From Parcubacteria group bacterium Gr01-1014_17 (GTDB lineage Bacteria > Patescibacteriota > Minisyncoccia > Phycocordibacterales > UBA10002), in the NCBI GenBank assembly GCA_007376285.1, contig VMFZ01000002.1, forward strand, positions 1-52,042: DNA of 52,042 bases, given 5' to 3'. Each line of letters opens with the position of its first letter. The stretch's first letter is position 1. The position numbers and the translations under genes were made by a program. Under the pieces are notes generated by a model that searched no databases, was not told the DNA's origin, and saw nothing but the letters and a program-made list of their open reading frames with translations. Positions 37,984 through 50,100 of this stretch are shown piece after piece.

Positions 37984-40900
37984 CTACACTTTAATATCAA
38001 ACTTATAGAGATCTCCGCAGATTGAAGTTGTTTCGCCAACTGCAATCGAAACAAACTGAACATCTTTAAGCAATGCGGATTTTTTGAGTTCGCCAATAAA
38101 CTTTTCTACAAACGCCTTACCATCCGCGCTAGTGTCCACGATAAGCGTTGCTAAGTCGGAAATGGTCAATCCTTTCTTTTTGCGTAAATTCTGCACCGCA
38201 CGAACAAGTTCGCGAAAATTACCTTCTTCTTTGAGTTCTTGTGTTATTGTGGTATCTAATTCCACTTCTCCAGCAAGGGTTTTATCAAAGATTACCTCTT
38301 TTATATTTACTTCTTCTTGTATAAGGAGTAAGAATTCTGTGTGAATTTCTAATTTTTTAATTTTTAATTTTTGGAGAGGTTGTCGAATCTTTATATTCGC
38401 TTTCGCACGCGCTTCCAGTGCAAGTGACACTATTTTTCTCACTTCCTCCATTTTTTCTAGCACTCCAGTTTCCAATTTCCAGTTTCCAGTGTCTGGCCAA
38501 CTTTCAAGATGCACGCTTGGGACCGACAAAATCGGCACCAGATGTTTGAAGCCCCCAACATCTGGTGCCGTAAAAATAGACTGATACATCTCTTCCGCCA
38601 AAAACGGCATTATTGGGGCGATGAGTTTTGATAGAGATAGCAAGACCTCGCGCTGGGTCGCAAGCGCGTACTGCTTGTCTTGTTCGTTTTCGGACTTCAC
38701 CCGCGCCCGCGAACGGCGGATGTACCATGTGGAATAATCTTCTGTGAACGCGCGGATTTCACGGCACGCAGAGGGCGTATCATACACCTCCATTGCATTT
38801 GTGATTGTCTGCACAGCGCGCGCGAGGCGCGCGCGTATCCATACATCCAATATATGCATACTTTCTTCCGCGTGTGTTTTCCCGTTATACTTGTCTTTAT
38901 ATAACTCAAAAAACGAAAGACAGTTTCGTAGAATCCCCACCACGCGATTGTGCGCTTCGCGCACATCGTCATCGCGGAAACTCAAGTCCTCGCCCTGCAT
39001 CACCACACTTCCCATAAGGCACAACCGAAACGCGTCCGCGCCGTATTGGTCCATCAAAAGAAACGGGTCCGTGTAATTACCTTTTGATTTTGAGATTTTC
39101 GCGCCGTCTTCCGCTAAAATCGTACCGGTGGAAACCACTGCATTAAATGCGCGTCTGTTGGACAACAAAATACCAAGCGCGTGAAGGTAATAGAACCAAG
39201 TGCGCGTTTGGGCAATATATTCTGCAATAAAATCCGCCGGGTATTTCGCCGGCTTTGACGCAAACGGCATCGCCGCCGATTCCACCCAACAATCAACCAC
39301 TTCAGGAATGCGCTCGTATTCCCTTCCAGCTTCATCAACAAGAGTCAGCGTGTCTATCCACGGGCGGTGCAAATCAAGTTCATAGTCCTGATTGTGTGGG
39401 AAAAGTGCAAACTGAAGCACGAGCGTTTCTGCAAGCCCCAACATAACTCTGTCTGAAAACTGGTTAGACGGTTTACCTTCTGCAACTTGAGACAAAACCC
39501 ATAACGGACCGCCGTGTCCAACGATAAGAATTCTTTTATTTTGATAACGGCTCTCTATTTCAAACAAAAACTCGCCGACTCGCCGACGAACCTCTACAAG
39601 TGTCTGCTCGTTGCGTTCATGCAGGCGCTCGTCAACTATAACGGCGTTGTCCGGCAATCCGAGCTCTTTTTGAACAAGGAGAGCCGTCTCGCGCGTACGC
39701 ACAAACGGCGAGGTAATTATAAAATCAATTTTCTCGCGTTTAAGATTAGCAGCGGCATGCACCACACCCGCTTTTCCATTACCTGTCAGATGATTCTGCG
39801 GGTCTCCATACAAATCTTCTATGTTTTTAACATTATCAATCGCTTCGCCGTGCCGCATAATAAAATATTGATTGCCAGATTTTTTCACCAGATGTTTCAA
39901 TTCATCAAGTGAACCGACCACAATCACACGGCTACCTCCCTTCTCTTTCCAAATCGGCAACGGCGTCGCCCAAAAACGGTTACGCGAAATGTTCCAATCA
40001 GGAGCCCCTTCCACAATGTTTTTGAAACGACCGTGTTTCAAGTGTTCTGGCACCCACTGTATCTTTTCGTTTTCCGAAAGCATTTTCTTTTTTGCTTTTT
40101 GTATGGCGATGAACCACGACGGCACCGCGTTGTAAATCAAAGGCGTCCCACACCGATAGCAGTGCGGGTATTCGTGCGTGTTCAATGCGCGCGCAAAAAG
40201 CAATCCTCGTGTTTCCAAATCCGACTTTATTTCTTCCTCCGCATCCTTTACATACTTTCCGCGCAAAAACTCCGGTGCGTGTTCGTTGTACTTCGCGCTT
40301 GCATCAAGCAGTTGCACCATCGACAACCCTTCTTTCTGACCGAGCGCAAAATCATCTTCTCCATACATCACCGCCGTATGCACGATTCCCGTTCCTTCTT
40401 CCGTGTTAACAAAATCCGCTGCGTACACTTTGTATGATTTCTCCGACTTGAGCGCGGGTACTTCAAAAATCGGCTCGTATTCCAACCCAACCAACTTCTT
40501 TCCTTTTATTTCCTCTATTGTTTCGTACGCTTTCCCTTTAAAAACTTCGGCAAGTCGATCTTTTGCAAGAATAAAAAGATCGTTCTCGATTTTGACTTTC
40601 ACATAAACAATCTTCTCTCCCACTGCGAGCGCGACATTCCCCGGAAGCGTCCATGGCGTCGTCGTCCACGCAAGCAAATAAACATCCCCATTTAATCCAA
40701 TCTTCTCCGGTTTTTTGACCTTAAACTTTACCGTTACCGCTTCTTCCGTAATTTCTTTATAGGTATTGTCCATCGCAATCTCGGCTTTCGCCAAAGGCGT
40801 TTCGCAGTGCGGGCAATACATAAGCACCTTTTTTCCTTCATACAAAAGTTTTTTCTCGTGCAACTGTTTAAGCGCCCACCACACGCTCTCCATATATGAG

Positions 40901-41355
40901 TTGTCCATCGTCTTGTAGGAGTTTCCGAAATCCACGAATCGCCCCACGCGCTCCACATACTTTTCCCATTCTTTTTCAAACTCCAAAACGCTCGCGCGCG
41001 CCGCATTATTAAACGTGGCAATACCGATTTTCTCAATATCTTTTTTTGTTTTAAGCCCGAGCCGCTTTTCCACCAAGCTCTCAATCGGGAGCCCGTGGCA
41101 ATCCCACCCCCAACGCCTGGCCACGCGAAATCCGCACATTGTCTTGTAGCGTGGAATTACATCTTTAATCACGGAAGAAAGGAGCGAGCCATGATGCGGA
41201 AGCCCTGTCGCAAACGGCGGCCCATCATAAAACACAAAGTCGCCTTCAGGTGATTCCTTTTGCAAGGACTTCTCAAAAACCTTGTTTTCTTTCCAAAACT
41301 TCAATACTTCCCGTTCTTTGTCGGCAACCGTCTTTTTTTGTTGATTTCCATCCAT
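37984..41355 (-). CDS. ileS: Isoleucine--tRNA ligase (type 2) with inserted histidine phosphatase domain
   Basis: DGPPFATGLPHHGS, GWDCHGLP, WTTTPWTLP, GTGIVH, DWNISRNRFW, KISKS; internal RHGE domain. Confidence 0.96.
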   Translation of the reverse strand: MDGNQQKKTVADKEREVLKFWKENKVFEKSLQKESPEGDFVFYDGPPFATGLPHHGSLLSSVIKDVIPRYKTMCGFRVARRWGWDCHGLPIESLVEKRLGLKTKKDIEKIGIATFNNAARASVLEFEKEWEKYVERVGRFVDFGNSYKTMDNSYMESVWWALKQLHEKKLLYEGKKVLMYCPHCETPLAKAEIAMDNTYKEITEEAVTVKFKVKKPEKIGLNGDVYLLAWTTTPWTLPGNVALAVGEKIVYVKVKIENDLFILAKDRLAEVFKGKAYETIEEIKGKKLVGLEYEPIFEVPALKSEKSYKVYAADFVNTEEGTGIVHTAVMYGEDDFALGQKEGLSMVQLLDASAKYNEHAPEFLRGKYVKDAEEEIKSDLETRGLLFARALNTHEYPHCYRCGTPLIYNAVPSWFIAIQKAKKKMLSENEKIQWVPEHLKHGRFKNIVEGAPDWNISRNRFWATPLPIWKEKGGSRVIVVGSLDELKHLVKKSGNQYFIMRHGEAIDNVKNIEDLYGDPQNHLTGNGKAGVVHAAANLKREKIDFIITSPFVRTRETALLVQKELGLPDNAVIVDERLHERNEQTLVEVRRRVGEFLFEIESRYQNKRILIVGHGGPLWVLSQVAEGKPSNQFSDRVMLGLAETLVLQFALFPHNQDYELDLHRPWIDTLTLVDEAGREYERIPEVVDCWVESAAMPFASKPAKYPADFIAEYIAQTRTWFYYLHALGILLSNRRAFNAVVSTGTILAEDGAKISKSKGNYTDPFLLMDQYGADAFRLCLMGSVVMQGEDLSFRDDDVREAHNRVVGILRNCLSFFELYKDKYNGKTHAEESMHILDVWIRARLARAVQTITNAMEVYDTPSACREIRAFTEDYSTWYIRRSRARVKSENEQDKQYALATQREVLLSLSKLIAPIMPFLAEEMYQSIFTAPDVGGFKHLVPILSVPSVHLESWPDTGNWKLETGVLEKMEEVRKIVSLALEARAKANIKIRQPLQKLKIKKLEIHTEFLLLIQEEVNIKEVIFDKTLAGEVELDTTITQELKEEGNFRELVRAVQNLRKKKGLTISDLATLIVDTSADGKAFVEKFIGELKKSALLKDVQFVSIAVGETTSICGDLYKFDIKV

Positions 41356-45759: not shown

Positions 45760-46953
45760 CTATCTTCTTAACACCCTGTCAATTTTCCACGCAATCTCCC
45801 GAAAGTCCTTTTCTTTTTTTCCGCGCGTGGTTTCTGCGGCACTGCCGAGGCGTATTCCGGAGGGGTCCACGGGACTCCGTGTGTCAAAAGGAATTGTATT
45901 TTTGTTCACAATAATACCAGCTTTTTCCAGCCGCTCACTGGCATCCTTGCCAGTGAGCGACTGCCCTGAGCTTGTCGAAGGGCAGCCGCCCATCCACACA
46001 TCAACCAAGAGAAGATGGGAATCAGTACCGCCGCTTACAATGCGCCAATCAAGTTTCTTTAGTTCGTCCGCAAGTACTTGCGCATTTTTTATTACTTGCG
46101 CCGCGTACTTTCGAAACGCTGGCGTACTCGCCTCTTTAAGTGCAACTGCAACTGCTGCTATTTGATTGAGATGTGGACCACCTTGCATCCCTGGGAAAAC
46201 TGCTTTGTCTATTTTCTTATCTAACTCTCTATTATCTTTGCGAGAAAAAATCAAAGCTGCGCGCGGACCACGGAGTGTTTTGTGCACTGTAGTCGTTACA
46301 ACATCTGCGTACAGAAACGGGCTCGGATATACCCCTCCAGCTACCAGCCCTCCAGTGTGCGACATATCTACCATTAAATACGCACTGCATGAATCAGCTA
46401 TTTCGCGGAACTTTTTGAAATCAATCGTACGCGAATACGCGGTAAAACCTGCGACAATGAGTGCGGGCTTTTCGCGTGTGGCAATATCTTTTAACTCTTC
46501 GTAATCCAGCGTTTCTGTATTTTGAGCAACGCCGTACGGAACTTGTTGCCACATCTTTCCGGAAATAGAGACCTTATGCCCATGCGTCAGATGCCCACCG
46601 TGCGCGAGCGACATTCCCATAATTTTTCCTCCTTGCGGAACAAGCGCGAGATACACCGCAACATTTGCCGGCGAGCCGGAAAGCGGCTGGACATTCACGC
46701 TCCATTCGCTCGGAGAAAGTTTAAAAAGTTTGAGCGCGCGCTCTTTTGCAAGATTTTCTATTTTATCCATCACCTTATTTCCGCCATAATACCGCGCCCC
46801 CGGATACCCTTCGGCATACTTATTCGTCAGCTCGCTCCCGAGCGCCTCAAGCACATCTTTGGACACATAATTTTCCGACGCGATAAGATTAATGACGCTT
46901 TTCTGTCGTTTCTTCTCGGCATCTATGAGTTTTTTGATTTGAATGTCTTTCAT
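45760..46953 (-). CDS. glyA: Serine hydroxymethyltransferase
   Basis: LIASENY, NKYAEGYPG.RYYGG, GGHLTHG, TTTVHKTLRGPR. Confidence 0.98.
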   Translation of the reverse strand: MKDIQIKKLIDAEKKRQKSVINLIASENYVSKDVLEALGSELTNKYAEGYPGARYYGGNKVMDKIENLAKERALKLFKLSPSEWSVNVQPLSGSPANVAVYLALVPQGGKIMGMSLAHGGHLTHGHKVSISGKMWQQVPYGVAQNTETLDYEELKDIATREKPALIVAGFTAYSRTIDFKKFREIADSCSAYLMVDMSHTGGLVAGGVYPSPFLYADVVTTTVHKTLRGPRAALIFSRKDNRELDKKIDKAVFPGMQGGPHLNQIAAVAVALKEASTPAFRKYAAQVIKNAQVLADELKKLDWRIVSGGTDSHLLLVDVWMGGCPSTSSGQSLTGKDASERLEKAGIIVNKNTIPFDTRSPVDPSGIRLGSAAETTRGKKEKDFREIAWKIDRVLRR

Positions 46954-46956
46954 AGT

Positions 46957-47592
46957 TTATATAATATATTTTTTCAGTTCTGCGGCAAGCGCTTTGGTTA
47001 CTGTGTCAAATTGTGGGTTTGCATCAATTGTAGAGTGCGGGACTTGTTTAAAAAAATCCAGAAGCCCGCGGCGCATTCGTGTGTGAAATTGCACATCGCG
47101 TTCGTCAAAATGGTTGAGTTTTTCTCCTGTTTGTTGTTGTTTGCGCGACAAACCAACGCGCGGCTTCACATCAAGGAAAAAATAACGGGCTGGCACATAC
47201 TTTCCTAAATAAAACCGACGCATCTCCCAGAAAAAGCCCTTGAGTTCGGATGCCTTTTGCGCAAAAATCTGGTACGCATAAGTAGACGAATCAAACCGGT
47301 CTACAAGAACATTTTGCCCTCGCGCGAGAGCCGGAATAATAGTATTTTTCAAATGGTCTGCCCGCGCCGCCCAAAACAAAGCGAAGTGTGTCTTGGCGTC
47401 CGCCTGTCCTGCATTTTTTGAATTAAGAATAATGGAACGAATCTCTTCGGCGTACGGAGAACCGCCCGGCTCGCGTGTAATTAAAACGCGCACACCAAAA
47501 TACTCTTGAATCTTGCGTATTTGAGTGCTTTTCCCTGAACCCTCGCCGCCTTCTAGAACAAAAAATTTGCCTTTTTTATTTTTCATAATCAC
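46957..47592 (-). CDS. tmk: Thymidylate kinase
   Basis: EGGEGSGKSTQ, TREPGG, DRFDSSTYAYQ. Confidence 0.95.
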   Translation of the reverse strand: MIMKNKKGKFFVLEGGEGSGKSTQIRKIQEYFGVRVLITREPGGSPYAEEIRSIILNSKNAGQADAKTHFALFWAARADHLKNTIIPALARGQNVLVDRFDSSTYAYQIFAQKASELKGFFWEMRRFYLGKYVPARYFFLDVKPRVGLSRKQQQTGEKLNHFDERDVQFHTRMRRGLLDFFKQVPHSTIDANPQFDTVTKALAAELKKYII

Positions 47593-48044
47593 CTTTTTGT
47601 ATTAAAGAGCTTTTCACTTCCTTCAAGAAGATACACATTTTTTATGCCGGCGGCAAGCATCGCGTCCCAGCACGGCTTACAACACCACCAGTGGCCGTAT
47701 AAATATAAATCTGCGCCACGAGTATCTTCGCCATGCGAAATGGCATCTTCAAGCGCTTTCGGTTCGCTGTGATTTTTCGGATTGCATCCTTCGCAAAGGT
47801 CATAGCGCTCTCCTGTTGGAATGCGCTGGCGCACCCGCTCACAGCCGTGCTCTTGGTGATACCTATTGCCGTTTGCGCCCTGTCCTATAATGCGTCCATT
47901 CTTTACCACGACACTGCCGGTTTTCTGAAAATCATCCAATGAATGCGCGAGTGCATACTCATGCGCAGCGCGCATAAATTGGTTGTCCGCAGAAACATAT
48001 TCAACAGTTCGCCCTTCCGGAAGATATGGGTATTGAATGGCCAT
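47589..48044 (-). CDS. dCMP-deaminase-like zinc deaminase (start probably MAIQYP)
   Basis: GSVVVKNGRIIGQGAN, CER..PTGERYDLC, HSE, CKPC, AGIKNVY. Confidence 0.85.
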   Translation of the reverse strand: MAIQYPYLPEGRTVEYVSADNQFMRAAHEYALAHSLDDFQKTGSVVVKNGRIIGQGANGNRYHQEHGCERVRQRIPTGERYDLCEGCNPKNHSEPKALEDAISHGEDTRGADLYLYGHWWCCKPCWDAMLAAGIKNVYLLEGSEKLFNTKR

Positions 48045-48072
48045 AAGAAACAGCATATAGTATAAAATCACT

Positions 48073-48909
48073 ATGACAAAATTTGATGGGATTTATCAGG
48101 ATATGATTCGGCGCATTATGCTCGGAGGCATTGCAGAAGTGAACCAGCGAACTCGCCACGAAACGCGCGCCATCCCAGGTATGCACTTTTCCGTAGATAT
48201 TGAAAAAGATGGCTTCCCACTCATAACACTTCGCAAAATACCGATTCAGATGTTTGTCGCGGAACAATTATGGTTTATTTCTGGCAGCCGCAAGCCCGAA
48301 GATTTCCTCCGCGAGTTCACCAAAATCTGGGACGACTTCACCAATCCCGGCGATGTCGTAACGGTTGCCTATGGCTACCGGTGGCGGAAGCATTTCGGGC
48401 GTGACCAGTTGGGACTGCTTGTTAAACTTCTTGAAAAAGACCACAGCTCGCGACATGGCGTTGTGGTGGCGTGGGACCCATCTGGCGACGGGCTCGGCGG
48501 CGTGGTAAAGAAAAATGTGCCATGCCCATATACATTTACAGTTAATATAATCGGTGATCGGCTTAATCTACATAATATTATTCGTTCGAACGATATCATA
48601 CTTGGAACGCCATCGGATGTTGCCGGTTTCGCTCTCCTCCAATGCATCCTTGCGCAACGATTGGGAGTAAAGCCCGGCATTTATAGCCATTCAATTTCCA
48701 ACGCGCACATTTACGACACGCACTATTTTGCCGCAGAAGAAATCTTGCGTAGGAGCAATGAACATAAAAGAATAATCCTAAACCTTCCGCTAAAAACATT
48801 TGGGCGCGCGGAAAAGAAAGACCGGAAATTAGTTAAAGAAATTGTTGAAAATCTACAAATCCAATACCACCCACTTGAACCAATCAAAGGAATTAAAATT
48901 GTGCTATAA
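48073..48909 (+). CDS. thyA: Thymidylate-synthase-family protein with a dCMP-type Asp at the specificity site
   Basis: FPLITLRK, YGYRWR, DQL, PC151, RSND, D182 (Asn177 equivalent), AHIY. Confidence 0.88.
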   Translation: MTKFDGIYQDMIRRIMLGGIAEVNQRTRHETRAIPGMHFSVDIEKDGFPLITLRKIPIQMFVAEQLWFISGSRKPEDFLREFTKIWDDFTNPGDVVTVAYGYRWRKHFGRDQLGLLVKLLEKDHSSRHGVVVAWDPSGDGLGGVVKKNVPCPYTFTVNIIGDRLNLHNIIRSNDIILGTPSDVAGFALLQCILAQRLGVKPGIYSHSISNAHIYDTHYFAAEEILRRSNEHKRIILNLPLKTFGRAEKKDRKLVKEIVENLQIQYHPLEPIKGIKIVL

Positions 48910-48917
48910 CATAATCT

Positions 48918-49550
48918 ATGGCGATACTGACCAAAAAAGGAATTCTTGAACGCGTTGCAAAAAAAGAAATCGGTTTCTCGCCGAATCTTGACACATTCCA
49001 GCTACAAGACCACGCGGTTGACTTGCGGCTCGGCTTCACCTTTCTCATTCCAAAAATTTGGCATCTTACAGAAAAAGGGCGCGAGTCGTTGGATATTCTC
49101 AATTTTGATAAAGTGAATGCGGAATATTTTGAGGTGGTAGAGCTTGAGCATGGGCAATATTTTGACCTCTTGCCGCACGAATATGTGCTCGTGGTTACAC
49201 TTGAATCAATAAAAGTGCCGAACGATTTGATGGCGGTTTTATACCCTCGCTCGTCTACCAACCGCAAAGGACTCTCGCTGGACCTCACCGGCATCATTGA
49301 TTCCGGCTATGAAGGTCAACTAACGCTTCCAATACGAAATAACACGGCATCGCAAATCGTGCGACTCTACCCTGGGGAACGGCTGTGCCAAGTCGTATTT
49401 GAAGAACTCACCGAGCCCGTGAGTCCGCAAAAGAGCAAGTACCATAAGCGCGACATTATAGAGGGCATCAAACGGGAAAAAGCGATTGAGTCGCGCCTTA
49501 TATTAAAGGGAGATATAAAAAAACTGAAAGCGGAACATGCGGTAAAATAA
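48918..49550 (+). CDS. dcd: dCTP deaminase/dUTPase-family protein lacking the catalytic Glu
   Basis: VDLRLG, RSSTNRKGL, IDSGYEG, LYPGERLCQ; P138 in place of Glu. Confidence 0.85.
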   Translation: MAILTKKGILERVAKKEIGFSPNLDTFQLQDHAVDLRLGFTFLIPKIWHLTEKGRESLDILNFDKVNAEYFEVVELEHGQYFDLLPHEYVLVVTLESIKVPNDLMAVLYPRSSTNRKGLSLDLTGIIDSGYEGQLTLPIRNNTASQIVRLYPGERLCQVVFEELTEPVSPQKSKYHKRDIIEGIKREKAIESRLILKGDIKKLKAEHAVK

Positions 49551-49554
49551 CTTC

Positions 49555-50100
49555 GTGCAAGCAAAAATCAGTATTATAGTTGCAGTCGGAAAAAACAACC
49601 GCGCTATCGGGAAAACGGGTGCGCTCCTTTGGCGCATTTCGGACGACCTAAGGCGTTTCAAAGAGCTCACGACCGGACATCCGATTATTATGGGCCGCAA
49701 GACCTTTGAATCCATCGGCAAGGCACTCCCGAACCGCACAAACATAGTTATAACGCGCAATCCCGATTTTAAACATGCCCGCCGAGGAGGCGTGGCGGAA
49801 GGAGTAATTGTCGCGTCATCGTTGGAGAATGCGATTGGTCTCGCAAGGTCGGACCTTGAATCGGGAAAAAGGTCCGACCTTAAAGACCCTGAAATCTTTA
49901 TTATTGGCGGGGGAGAAATTTACCAGCAAGCGCTTCCGCTTGCCGACAAACTTTATCTCACGCTCGTAGAAAGCGACGCCGAGGGCGACACTTTTTTCCC
50001 CGACTGGCGTAATGACTTTACGAAAGAGGTCTTCCGCGAAGAGCGCATCGACCCCAAAACCGGACTGAAATATGTGTGGGTTGATTTGGAACGCGCGTAA
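49555..50100 (+). CDS. folA: Dihydrofolate reductase
   Basis: LLWRISDDLRRFKELT, IMGRKTFESI, LPNRTNIVITR, IIGGGEIY, GDTFFP. Confidence 0.96.
   Translation: MQAKISIIVAVGKNNRAIGKTGALLWRISDDLRRFKELTTGHPIIMGRKTFESIGKALPNRTNIVITRNPDFKHARRGGVAEGVIVASSLENAIGLARSDLESGKRSDLKDPEIFIIGGGEIYQQALPLADKLYLTLVESDAEGDTFFPDWRNDFTKEVFREERIDPKTGLKYVWVDLERA

Follow-up and report, generated by a model that had tools for sequence, protein, structure and literature searches.

Introduction

Cells are thought to make thymidylate from deoxyuridine monophosphate (dUMP) by way of either ThyA or ThyX. Asp-type members of the thymidylate synthase (TS) family, as well as the logic by which 5-methyldeoxycytidine (5mdC) is turned into deoxythymidine (dT), are already known from phages. 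Here we examine a stretch of 52,042 nucleotides from Parcubacteria group bacterium Gr01-1014_17 (contig VMFZ01000002.1; hereafter the window, meaning this whole stretch) which encodes a TS homolog with Asp at the position of Escherichia coli Asn177. This gene, TS(D), is an open reading frame (ORF) of 278 amino acids at positions 48073..48909 of the + strand, encoding a putative deoxycytidine monophosphate (dCMP) C5-methyltransferase, and forms the center of a conserved gene module on the chromosomes of Patescibacteria. Judged by its residues, by the rule of its family and by the relatives that have been tested, TS(D) probably takes dCMP as its substrate. We further propose, with our confidence evenly divided, that TS(D) methylates dCMP within a dUMP-independent thymidylate route in cells, which would lead from deoxycytidine triphosphate (dCTP) through dCMP and 5-methyl-dCMP to thymidine monophosphate (dTMP) and diphosphate (dTDP).

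The closest described systems come from work on phages and on engineered synthases. In the accessible text of PMC8670742, the preference of TS moves towards dCMP upon the substitution N177D in the E. coli enzyme and N229D in that of L. casei, in agreement with what a first-pass annotation of the window, made from the letters alone, had stated for E. coli ThyA. The same text reports that among 433 virome TS homologs positions 177 and 147 best discriminate between contigs of phages with modified and with unmodified cytosine, and assigns His147 to the network that reaches O4 of dUMP. According to the available portion of PMC5175136, Asp is kept in the cytosine users MilA, BcmA and T4 dCMP hydroxymethylase (CH) and Asn in the uracil users, while Arg and Ser at two further positions go with deoxyribose substrates and the cytidine monophosphate (CMP) hydroxymethylases MilA and BcmA have Lys and Ala there. 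A preprint (bioRxiv 10.1101/2024.12.05.627091), as far as its text was accessible, states that cytosine is wholly replaced by 5-methylcytosine (5mC) in Xp12-type phages, that 5mdC was formed in E. coli by the Xp12 homolog and by five of seven Asp-type enzymes linked to deaminases, the five being metagenomic, and that 70% of deaminase genes on modified contigs, compared to 6.1% on unmodified ones, are paired as Asp-type TS and PF00383 deaminase. Its authors propose that the linked deaminases turn 5mdC into dT nucleotides with no need of a second synthase. The accessible part of PMC12088426 adds that DCTD-type deaminases accept 5-methyl-dCMP.

For the Patescibacteria we found no description in the literature of a cellular lineage with only an Asp-type TS, in a search that most subscription journals lay outside; one paper reports transfer of thyA into Patescibacteria, and its accessible text makes no comment on residues.

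The active site of TS(D)

That TS(D) has the fold of the TS family is not in doubt. PF00303 (Thymidylat_synt) matches it with an E-value of 3.7e-47 and 161 bits (cut-off 24.3), with residues 8-237 covering positions 3-235 of the 266 in the profile. MAFFT places RSNDIILGTPSD of TS(D) column by column on RSCDVFLGLPFN of E. coli K-12 ThyA (thyA, b2827). Asp182 (GAT, 48616..48618, + strand) stands opposite Asn177, Cys151 (TGC, 48523-48525) opposite the catalytic Cys146 and Pro152 opposite His147 (the two codons together 48523..48528, + strand); PCH in E. coli is PCP in TS(D), and YQRS is IIRS. HMMER alignments to three solved thymidylate synthases confirm this register ('gtpsdvagfall' against 'gvpfniasyall'). 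The first-pass annotation had arrived at the same columns, the same two motif changes and the same Cys-to-Asp distance, 31 residues in TS(D) as in E. coli, and the two alignments and the located codons bear it out on each point.

Our active-site signature is read at E. coli ThyA positions 58, 94, 126, 127, 146, 147, 165, 166, 167, 169, 176, 177, 207 and 209, and is EYRHCPIRSDSDHY in TS(D) and EYRRCHQRSDFNHY in E. coli ThyA. TS(D) retains the catalytic Cys, E58, Y94, R126, R166, S167, D169, H207 and Y209 (E. coli numbering), and four active-site residues are substituted: Asn177 by Asp, His147 by Pro, Gln165 by Ile and Arg127 by His. At the two ribose-discriminating positions it has Arg127 (E. 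coli R126) and Ser172 (E. coli S167), not the Lys and Ala that the available portion of PMC5175136 gives for MilA and BcmA. Its C-terminal tail, 'PIKGIKIVL', aligns with the C-terminus of E. coli ThyA. Overall, TS(D) resembles canonical ThyA (EC 2.1.1.45) in its PF00303 fold, its Cys, its nucleotide-binding Arg, Ser and Asp, His207, Tyr209 and C-terminal tail, and in its operon partners dihydrofolate reductase (DHFR), serine hydroxymethyltransferase (SHMT) and dTMP kinase (Tmk), but differs from it in the four active-site changes, in scores below the equivalog cut-offs and in belonging to a separate clade.

The remaining catalytic residues, being canonical, would also suit an ordinary dUMP-methylating TS that works despite its Asp/Pro pocket, surrounded by the usual suppliers of dUMP (a dCMP deaminase acting on dCMP and a dUTPase-like enzyme acting on deoxyuridine triphosphate) together with DHFR, SHMT and Tmk. 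We regard this explanation, the chief competitor of the proposed route, as doubtful, though far from negligible. In the cited papers, as far as their text was accessible, the Asp enzymes with a named substrate all use a cytosine nucleotide and the Asn enzymes uracil, and 117 of the 119 close homologs of TS(D) described below have Pro instead of His147, which those papers place in the network to O4 of dUMP.

Conservation of Asp182

A pattern scan over one genome per species gave 191 matching stretches, and every 80-locus count in this text refers to the best 80 of these 191. Apart from one record labelled Ktedonobacterales, the best 80 are labelled as Patescibacteria-group or 'bacterium' metagenome-assembled genomes, the names among them including Taylor-, Kaiser-, Colwell-, Doudna-, Nomura-, Campbell- and Liptonbacteria and Paceibacterota. 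At these loci of other genomes the Asp is found in 80 of 80 and the Pro at the H147 position in 79. Among close homologs (71-90% identical) the Asp is likewise invariant (119/119), with Pro at the H147 position in 117 and Leu in 2. Among cluster representatives at 50% identity, the best 150 comprise 125 with Asp, 18 with Asn and 7 that are truncated or aberrant; 17 of the 18 Asn-type representatives also have His147 and one lacks columns 146-147. The 47 Asn-type TS genes of related genomes all have Asn at position 177.

Two variants were seen in passing. P0257, a cluster representative in the canonical clade, has His147 together with Asp177 (EYRRCHQRSDFDHY), a natural 'single-switch' variant. 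The Asn-type ThyA of about 323 residues in most species of the window's genus (L010-L028) shows, in our alignment, Gly, His and Asn opposite R21, R126 and R127 of the E. coli enzyme, an uncommon replacement of arginines that bind phosphate, which may stem from the alignment itself.

The sequencing data agree with the assembly. A contig from the probable source run spans 47500-48912 with zero differences, and a 151-nt contig from a run of a separate study spans 48494-48644, including the Asp182 codon, also with zero differences. The identical contigs of two runs, together with the 119 homologs and the 80 loci, rule out that the GAT codon at 48616-48618, to which the first-pass annotation had drawn attention, is a sequencing error or a singleton. 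An artefact in the wider sense, whether an error of sequencing, decay of the gene or misplacement of a phage contig in a genome bin, is barely conceivable. The genome was binned from a metagenome assembly and comprises 30 contigs, and relatives of TS(D) do occur on phage-like contigs. However, the contig with TS(D) also encodes ribosomal protein L11, NusG, arginyl- and isoleucyl-tRNA synthetases (ArgRS, IleRS), FtsK and SHMT; L11 and NusG lie within 4 kb of TS(D) at 42 and 35 of the 80 loci in other genomes, a closed chromosome included; and, besides the concordance of the two runs, the reading frame is intact and conserved, with a GC content of 0.459 compared to 0.48 for the window.

An Asp-type family shared with phages

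TS(D) stays under the curated cut-offs of all NCBIfam ThyA equivalog models (the best, NF002497, gives 125.8 against a cut-off of 327, and TIGR03284 gives 107.6 against 108.35). In 50,697 phage records its best matches are the enzymes of Xp12, Elanor, PaMx28/PaMx74, Donnerlittchen, Tedan and Achromobacter 83-24, with E-values of 1e-39 to 1e-46 for Xp12 and its relatives compared to about 1e-24 or weaker for the td genes of T-even phages. The enzymes of Xp12, PaMx28, Donnerlittchen, Tedan and 83-24 also combine Asp at N177 with Pro at H147, and the phage enzymes have in common with TS(D) a 'DGLG....KNVPCP' insertion before the catalytic Cys and an 'AYGYRWR...HFGRDQL' block.

Trees were built with FastTree (151 rows) and twice with IQ-TREE (LG+C20; 55 and 60 rows), with ThyA from E. 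coli and from related Patescibacteria and one T-even td among the canonical enzymes. The canonical Asn/His enzymes are split from the Asp-type group with a support of 98 in the FastTree tree and with SH-like approximate likelihood ratio test (SH-aLRT) values of 100 and 99 in the IQ-TREE trees, and in all three TS(D) lies inside the Asp-type group, in a subclade sister to that of Xp12. Because of this placement beside the phage enzymes, TS(D) is, on the evidence of the trees, a member of an old Asp-type family that it shares with phages and not the product of a recent N-to-D change in a bacterial thyA. The original suggestion that the Asp would mark a cytosine-nucleotide enzyme finds support in the cited papers, in the best phage relatives and in these trees. 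That no other synthase was found beside TS(D) in its cellular genome, that the gene belongs to a conserved module and that its context suits a dUMP pathway just as well are points beyond that annotation. Both the scores under all equivalog cut-offs and the branch, supported at 99-100% by IQ-TREE, that separates TS(D) from canonical ThyA count against a dUMP-methylating enzyme.

The nearest relatives outside the chromosomal clade are found on IMG/VR contigs, at 46-61% identity, and the genes around them match phage families (polynucleotide kinase, primase-helicase, ParB and endolysin). One gene on a phage-like contig (L214) pairs with the chromosomal gene of genome G402 with 98% support. Within the Asp-type family two cluster representatives are fusions, P0147 joining a dCMP deaminase and P0156 a PRA-PH/MazG-like pyrophosphohydrolase to the synthase. 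In a third protein, P0167, an HNH endonuclease is fused to the synthase, and this may be a homing-endonuclease insertion.

Compared with the dCMP 5-methyltransferase of Xp12 and its kin, TS(D) has the same Asp and Pro residues, the same insertion and sequence block, the same side of the split and the same adjoining genes for a deaminase and DHFR. It differs from them in forming part of a sister subclade at 33-40% identity, in being chromosomal and the only TS homolog of the cell, and in having a partner deaminase and a partner DHFR of cellular types. The partner pyrophosphatase is Dcd-like here, whereas the phages have a HAD hydrolase or a pyrophosphohydrolase, and the C-terminus is ThyA-like in TS(D) whereas the phage enzymes end in 'PEVIE'.

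Host genomes and the sole synthase

The source genome (G000) belongs to a tiny groundwater bacterium and is 610 kb in size and 96% complete, the window being its contig 14. TS(D) is the single PF00303 match in this genome; ThyX was not found there, nor was a thymidine kinase above cut-off or a deoxynucleoside kinase (dNK). In 13 of 13 carrier genomes examined, the sole ThyA-type match is the Asp-type gene and ThyX was not found. These carriers are the source genome, four of the same genus (G007, G008, G012 and G019), three of other families (G130, G402 and G043) and five reached via their loci (G439-G443), among which is a closed Kaiserbacteria chromosome of 859 kb. As the sole TS homolog in 13 of 13 genomes, TS(D) must somehow yield dTMP, a point which also favors a dUMP-methylating enzyme. 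Two of the four same-genus carriers have the gene in pieces, interrupted by a contig end in one case and by a frameshift in the other.

The window's genus has an Asn/His ThyA in 14 species and the Asp type in 5, and TS(D) was found in 4 of 401 genomes sampled evenly from the class, these 4 belonging to four families. A further Patescibacteria locus (L055, G434:C7:29023-32691) has an Asp/Pro-type TS of another subtype, with the signature EYKRCPQRADYDHY, and may be a prophage; G434 also has a second TS-type match on contig 23, and an Asp-type gene can thus coexist with a second TS homolog.

The gene module

In the window, the genes for SHMT, Tmk and a deaminase on the - strand diverge from those for TS(D), a Dcd-like protein and DHFR on the + strand. 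The SHMT gene (45760..46953, - strand; PF00464, E 6.6e-161), whose product supplies 5,10-methylene-tetrahydrofolate (methylene-THF), lies downstream of tmk (46957..47592, - strand; TIGR00041, 130.3 bits, cut-off 83.25), and tmk overlaps by 4 bp the dCMP deaminase-family gene (47589..48071, - strand; PF00383, E 1e-11), which is divergent from TS(D). On the other side, TS(D) is followed by the gene for a Dcd/dUTPase-superfamily protein of 210 amino acids (48918..49550, + strand; TIGR02274, 118.1 bits, above cut-off), a putative (deoxy)nucleoside triphosphate pyrophosphatase rather than a deaminase, and by the DHFR gene (49555..50100, + strand; PF00186, E 1.8e-49).

This arrangement recurs in other genomes. 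A deaminase gene is upstream of TS(D) at 76 of the 80 loci, corresponding to 76 of the 77 with enough flank, and a Dcd-like gene is downstream at 76 of 80, corresponding to all 76 with enough flank. Within 4 kb of TS(D), SHMT is encoded at 60, DHFR at 51 and Tmk at 39 of the 80 loci.

In Xp12, PaMx28, Donnerlittchen, Tedan and 83-24 the Asp-type gene is followed by a dCMP deaminase, and most of these phage loci have a HAD hydrolase or a 'nucleotide pyrophosphohydrolase' upstream and DHFR downstream. The bacterial deaminase and DHFR are barely similar to their phage counterparts. Transfer of the module from phages as a block was considered and rejected, because the deaminases and DHFRs of the phages are not close to the bacterial ones. 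As it is described in the accessible text of the preprint (bioRxiv 10.1101/2024.12.05.627091), the mSCD-B5 phage route is alike in that an Asp-type TS adjoins a PF00383 deaminase and thymidine is proposed to arise without a dUMP-dependent synthase. It differs in that those are viruses with 5mC genomes, whose best-studied deaminase needs triphosphates, whereas here the host is a bacterium and the linked deaminase belongs to a cellular clade on which ThyX genomes draw as well.

The linkage to folate genes bears on a further explanation, namely that TS(D) is a dCMP hydroxymethylase like T4 gp42, with 5-hydroxymethyl-dCMP as its product. T4 gp42, annotated as a dCMP hydroxymethylase, does have an Asp in the column of Asp182, as the first-pass annotation had it, with the catalytic Cys 31 residues upstream, and the FastTree tree puts it within the Asp group, though with a very long branch. 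We nevertheless consider this explanation highly improbable. T4 gp42 has Thr at the H147 position and ends earlier, without the ThyA-like tail that TS(D) keeps, and the overall similarity is very low and must be called remote, since tblastn, at E 1e-5, located no second site in the T4 record. The linkage to DHFR and SHMT fits a reaction that oxidizes the folate, and deamination of the product would give 5-hydroxymethyl-dUMP (hmdUMP) and not dTMP, in genomes in which no other synthase was found. Because of the linked SHMT and DHFR and the ThyA-like tail, we favor for TS(D) a reductive methylation with release of dihydrofolate over a hydroxymethylation.

The Dcd-like neighbor

The Dcd-like protein aligns over its whole length with dCTP deaminase and with bifunctional dCTP deaminase-dUTPase, but a Pro replaces the Glu of their 'TLE' motif. 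Pro138 (CCA, 49329-49331) sits where the solved Dcd chains 4xjc, 2qlp, 1xs1 and 1ogh have this Glu ('ltlpirn' against 'itlelfn' and 'itlels-n'). We take the Glu of the motif to be the catalyst of deamination. Pro is found at its position in 73 of 73 readable Dcd-like orthologs beside TS(D), and two more distant Dcd-like proteins, from G130 and G043, have Ser. In contrast, the Glu is kept in 18 of 18 Dcd-family neighbors of Asn-type TS, 13 of which belong to the window's genus. The change from Asn to Asp in the synthase is thus accompanied by loss of the deaminase residue in its neighbor, and since species of both types are mixed within one genus, each type with its own form of Dcd, a swap of pathway rather than drift is suggested, which again argues against a dUMP-methylating enzyme. 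The Dcd-like protein would fit an enzyme of triphosphate hydrolysis only, and members of this clade are probably misnamed when annotated automatically as dcd. Elsewhere in the Asp-type family the synthase is accompanied by unrelated pyrophosphohydrolases, encoded upstream in Xp12-type phages and fused to it in P0156.

Glu-less Dcd-like proteins are not strictly confined to TS(D) genomes, as 3 of the 5 genomes with such a protein have TS(D), the others being G176 and G383. The source genome encodes a second Dcd-family paralog on its contig 13 (L042:1129-1908, + strand; 259 amino acids, beside ndk), which scores 91.8 bits with TIGR02274, just below cut-off, and has Lys at the Glu position ('SLKIEN'). 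With Lys in this paralog and Pro in the protein of the window, the source genome may have no functional dCTP deaminase.

The adjacent deaminase

The listed start of the deaminase gene lies 1 bp from the start of TS(D), and translation probably begins some codons later. Its best solved relative is 2hvv, a deoxycytidylate deaminase (E 3e-4). The clade of this deaminase is not confined to TS(D) genomes, as only 4 of the 12 genomes with close homologs have TS(D). In the G130 carrier (L073:2638-3612) the deaminase ORF is 324 amino acids long, with a C-terminal extension of about 170 residues.

A proposed route to thymidylate

The route that we infer, enzymatic step by enzymatic step, alongside the observed residues, conservation, tree position, gene order and sole synthase, would run as follows. 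The Dcd-like protein, lacking the deaminase Glu, would hydrolyze dCTP to dCMP. From its residues and homology, TS(D) would convert dCMP to 5-methyl-dCMP, with 5,10-methylene-THF as the donor of both carbon and hydride and with release of dihydrofolate. The product of the divergent deaminase gene would then deaminate 5-methyl-dCMP to dTMP, which Tmk would phosphorylate, and DHFR and SHMT would close the folate cycle. Deamination of the methylated nucleotide is assigned to the adjacent deaminase because, if dCMP is indeed the substrate, no other source of dTMP was found. Methylation would precede deamination, the reverse of the textbook order, and dUMP would be bypassed. For phage Xp12 this logic has already been proposed, but in the present case the DNA synthesis of the cell itself would be served.

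Several observations weigh against this route. The module fits the classical dUMP pathway equally well, its gene set being that of the textbook dTMP pathway, and the Asn-type TS of related Patescibacteria has similar neighbors, adjoining DHFR at 25, Tmk at 13 and Dcd at 18 of 49 loci, and also deaminase-like genes. The closest orthologs of the deaminase (52-59% identity) are found in G147, G410, G087, G373 and G380, all of them carriers of ThyX in which a search with TS(D) found no ThyA homolog. The orthologs must therefore serve dUMP synthesis in those five genomes, and the deaminase is not a specialized, dedicated partner of TS(D). The Dcd-like protein may simply be a dUTPase. In G176 a Glu-less Dcd-like protein is encoded 3.5 kb away from an Asn-type TS, another occurs in G383, for which no ThyA match was found, and G402 has TS(D) yet no Dcd-like match. 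The clade itself, at 33-37% identity to the Xp12 enzyme, is known from sequence only, and two of the seven deaminase-linked enzymes tested in the preprint yielded no 5mdC, according to its accessible text (bioRxiv 10.1101/2024.12.05.627091). The textbook gene set, the similar neighbors of Asn-type TS, the same type of deaminase in ThyX genomes and the Glu-less protein of G176 would all favor the dUMP-methylating enzyme considered above.

The gene set is also that of Xp12-type phages, which raises another explanation. TS(D) could be a dCMP methylase as in Xp12, whose 5-methyl-dCMP is phosphorylated (e.g., by Tmk) and enters the DNA of the cell, replacing cytosine largely or wholly, while part of the methylated pool is deaminated to thymidine nucleotides. 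We judge this improbable. It would agree with the phage-like contigs that hold the closest relatives outside the chromosomal clade, with the pairing of L214 and G402 (98%), with a Dcd-like pyrophosphatase that could deplete dCTP, and with 5 of 5 other carrier genomes in which a C5 DNA methyltransferase was not found. The source genome, however, has a C5-cytosine DNA methyltransferase (E 2e-71) beside a 293-residue ORF, a possible endonuclease, which contradicts the explanation weakly, since such a methyltransferase would be pointless on fully methylated DNA, and a kinase for 5-methyl-dCMP was not identified. To our knowledge, no cellular organism replaces the cytosine of its DNA by 5-methylcytosine in this manner. 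A full Xp12 program on the chromosome, with the dCTP pool hydrolyzed, dCMP methylated, 5-methyl-dCTP used for replication, most or all cytosines present as 5mC and dT made only from the methylated pool, seems to us slightly more improbable still.

Implications for thymidylate metabolism

The loci described here represent a lineage of ultra-small Patescibacteria with only an active site of the phage dCMP-methylase type, known from 191 stretches and seen in all 80 examined. If the dUMP-independent route is correct, it would be a third route to thymidine in cells, one which bypasses dUMP and has apparently been exchanged with phages. The genes annotated as 'thyA', 'dcd' and 'comEB-like' would then need to be reread in metabolic reconstructions of Patescibacteria, the logic of antifolates and 5-fluoro-dUMP (FdUMP) for dUMP-binding enzymes would not apply, and the question would arise whether some cellular genomes contain 5-methylcytosine wholesale. 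The module would also be a source of natural dCMP methylases, and possibly of 5mC-tolerant deaminases, as tools. If TS(D) instead methylates dUMP, the Asn/Asp rule for predicting DNA modification in phages would be overturned.

Additional observations

In the source genome, the C5 methyltransferase mentioned above (L043, G000:C27:16365-20363; 380 amino acids) overlaps the 293-residue ORF tail to tail, beside a LexA-like repressor; no Pfam match was found for this ORF, which may be a restriction endonuclease. Elsewhere in the window, positions 37984-41355 (- strand) encode an IleRS-like class I tRNA synthetase of 1122 amino acids with a His_Phos_1 match at residues 497-581, within its catalytic domain.

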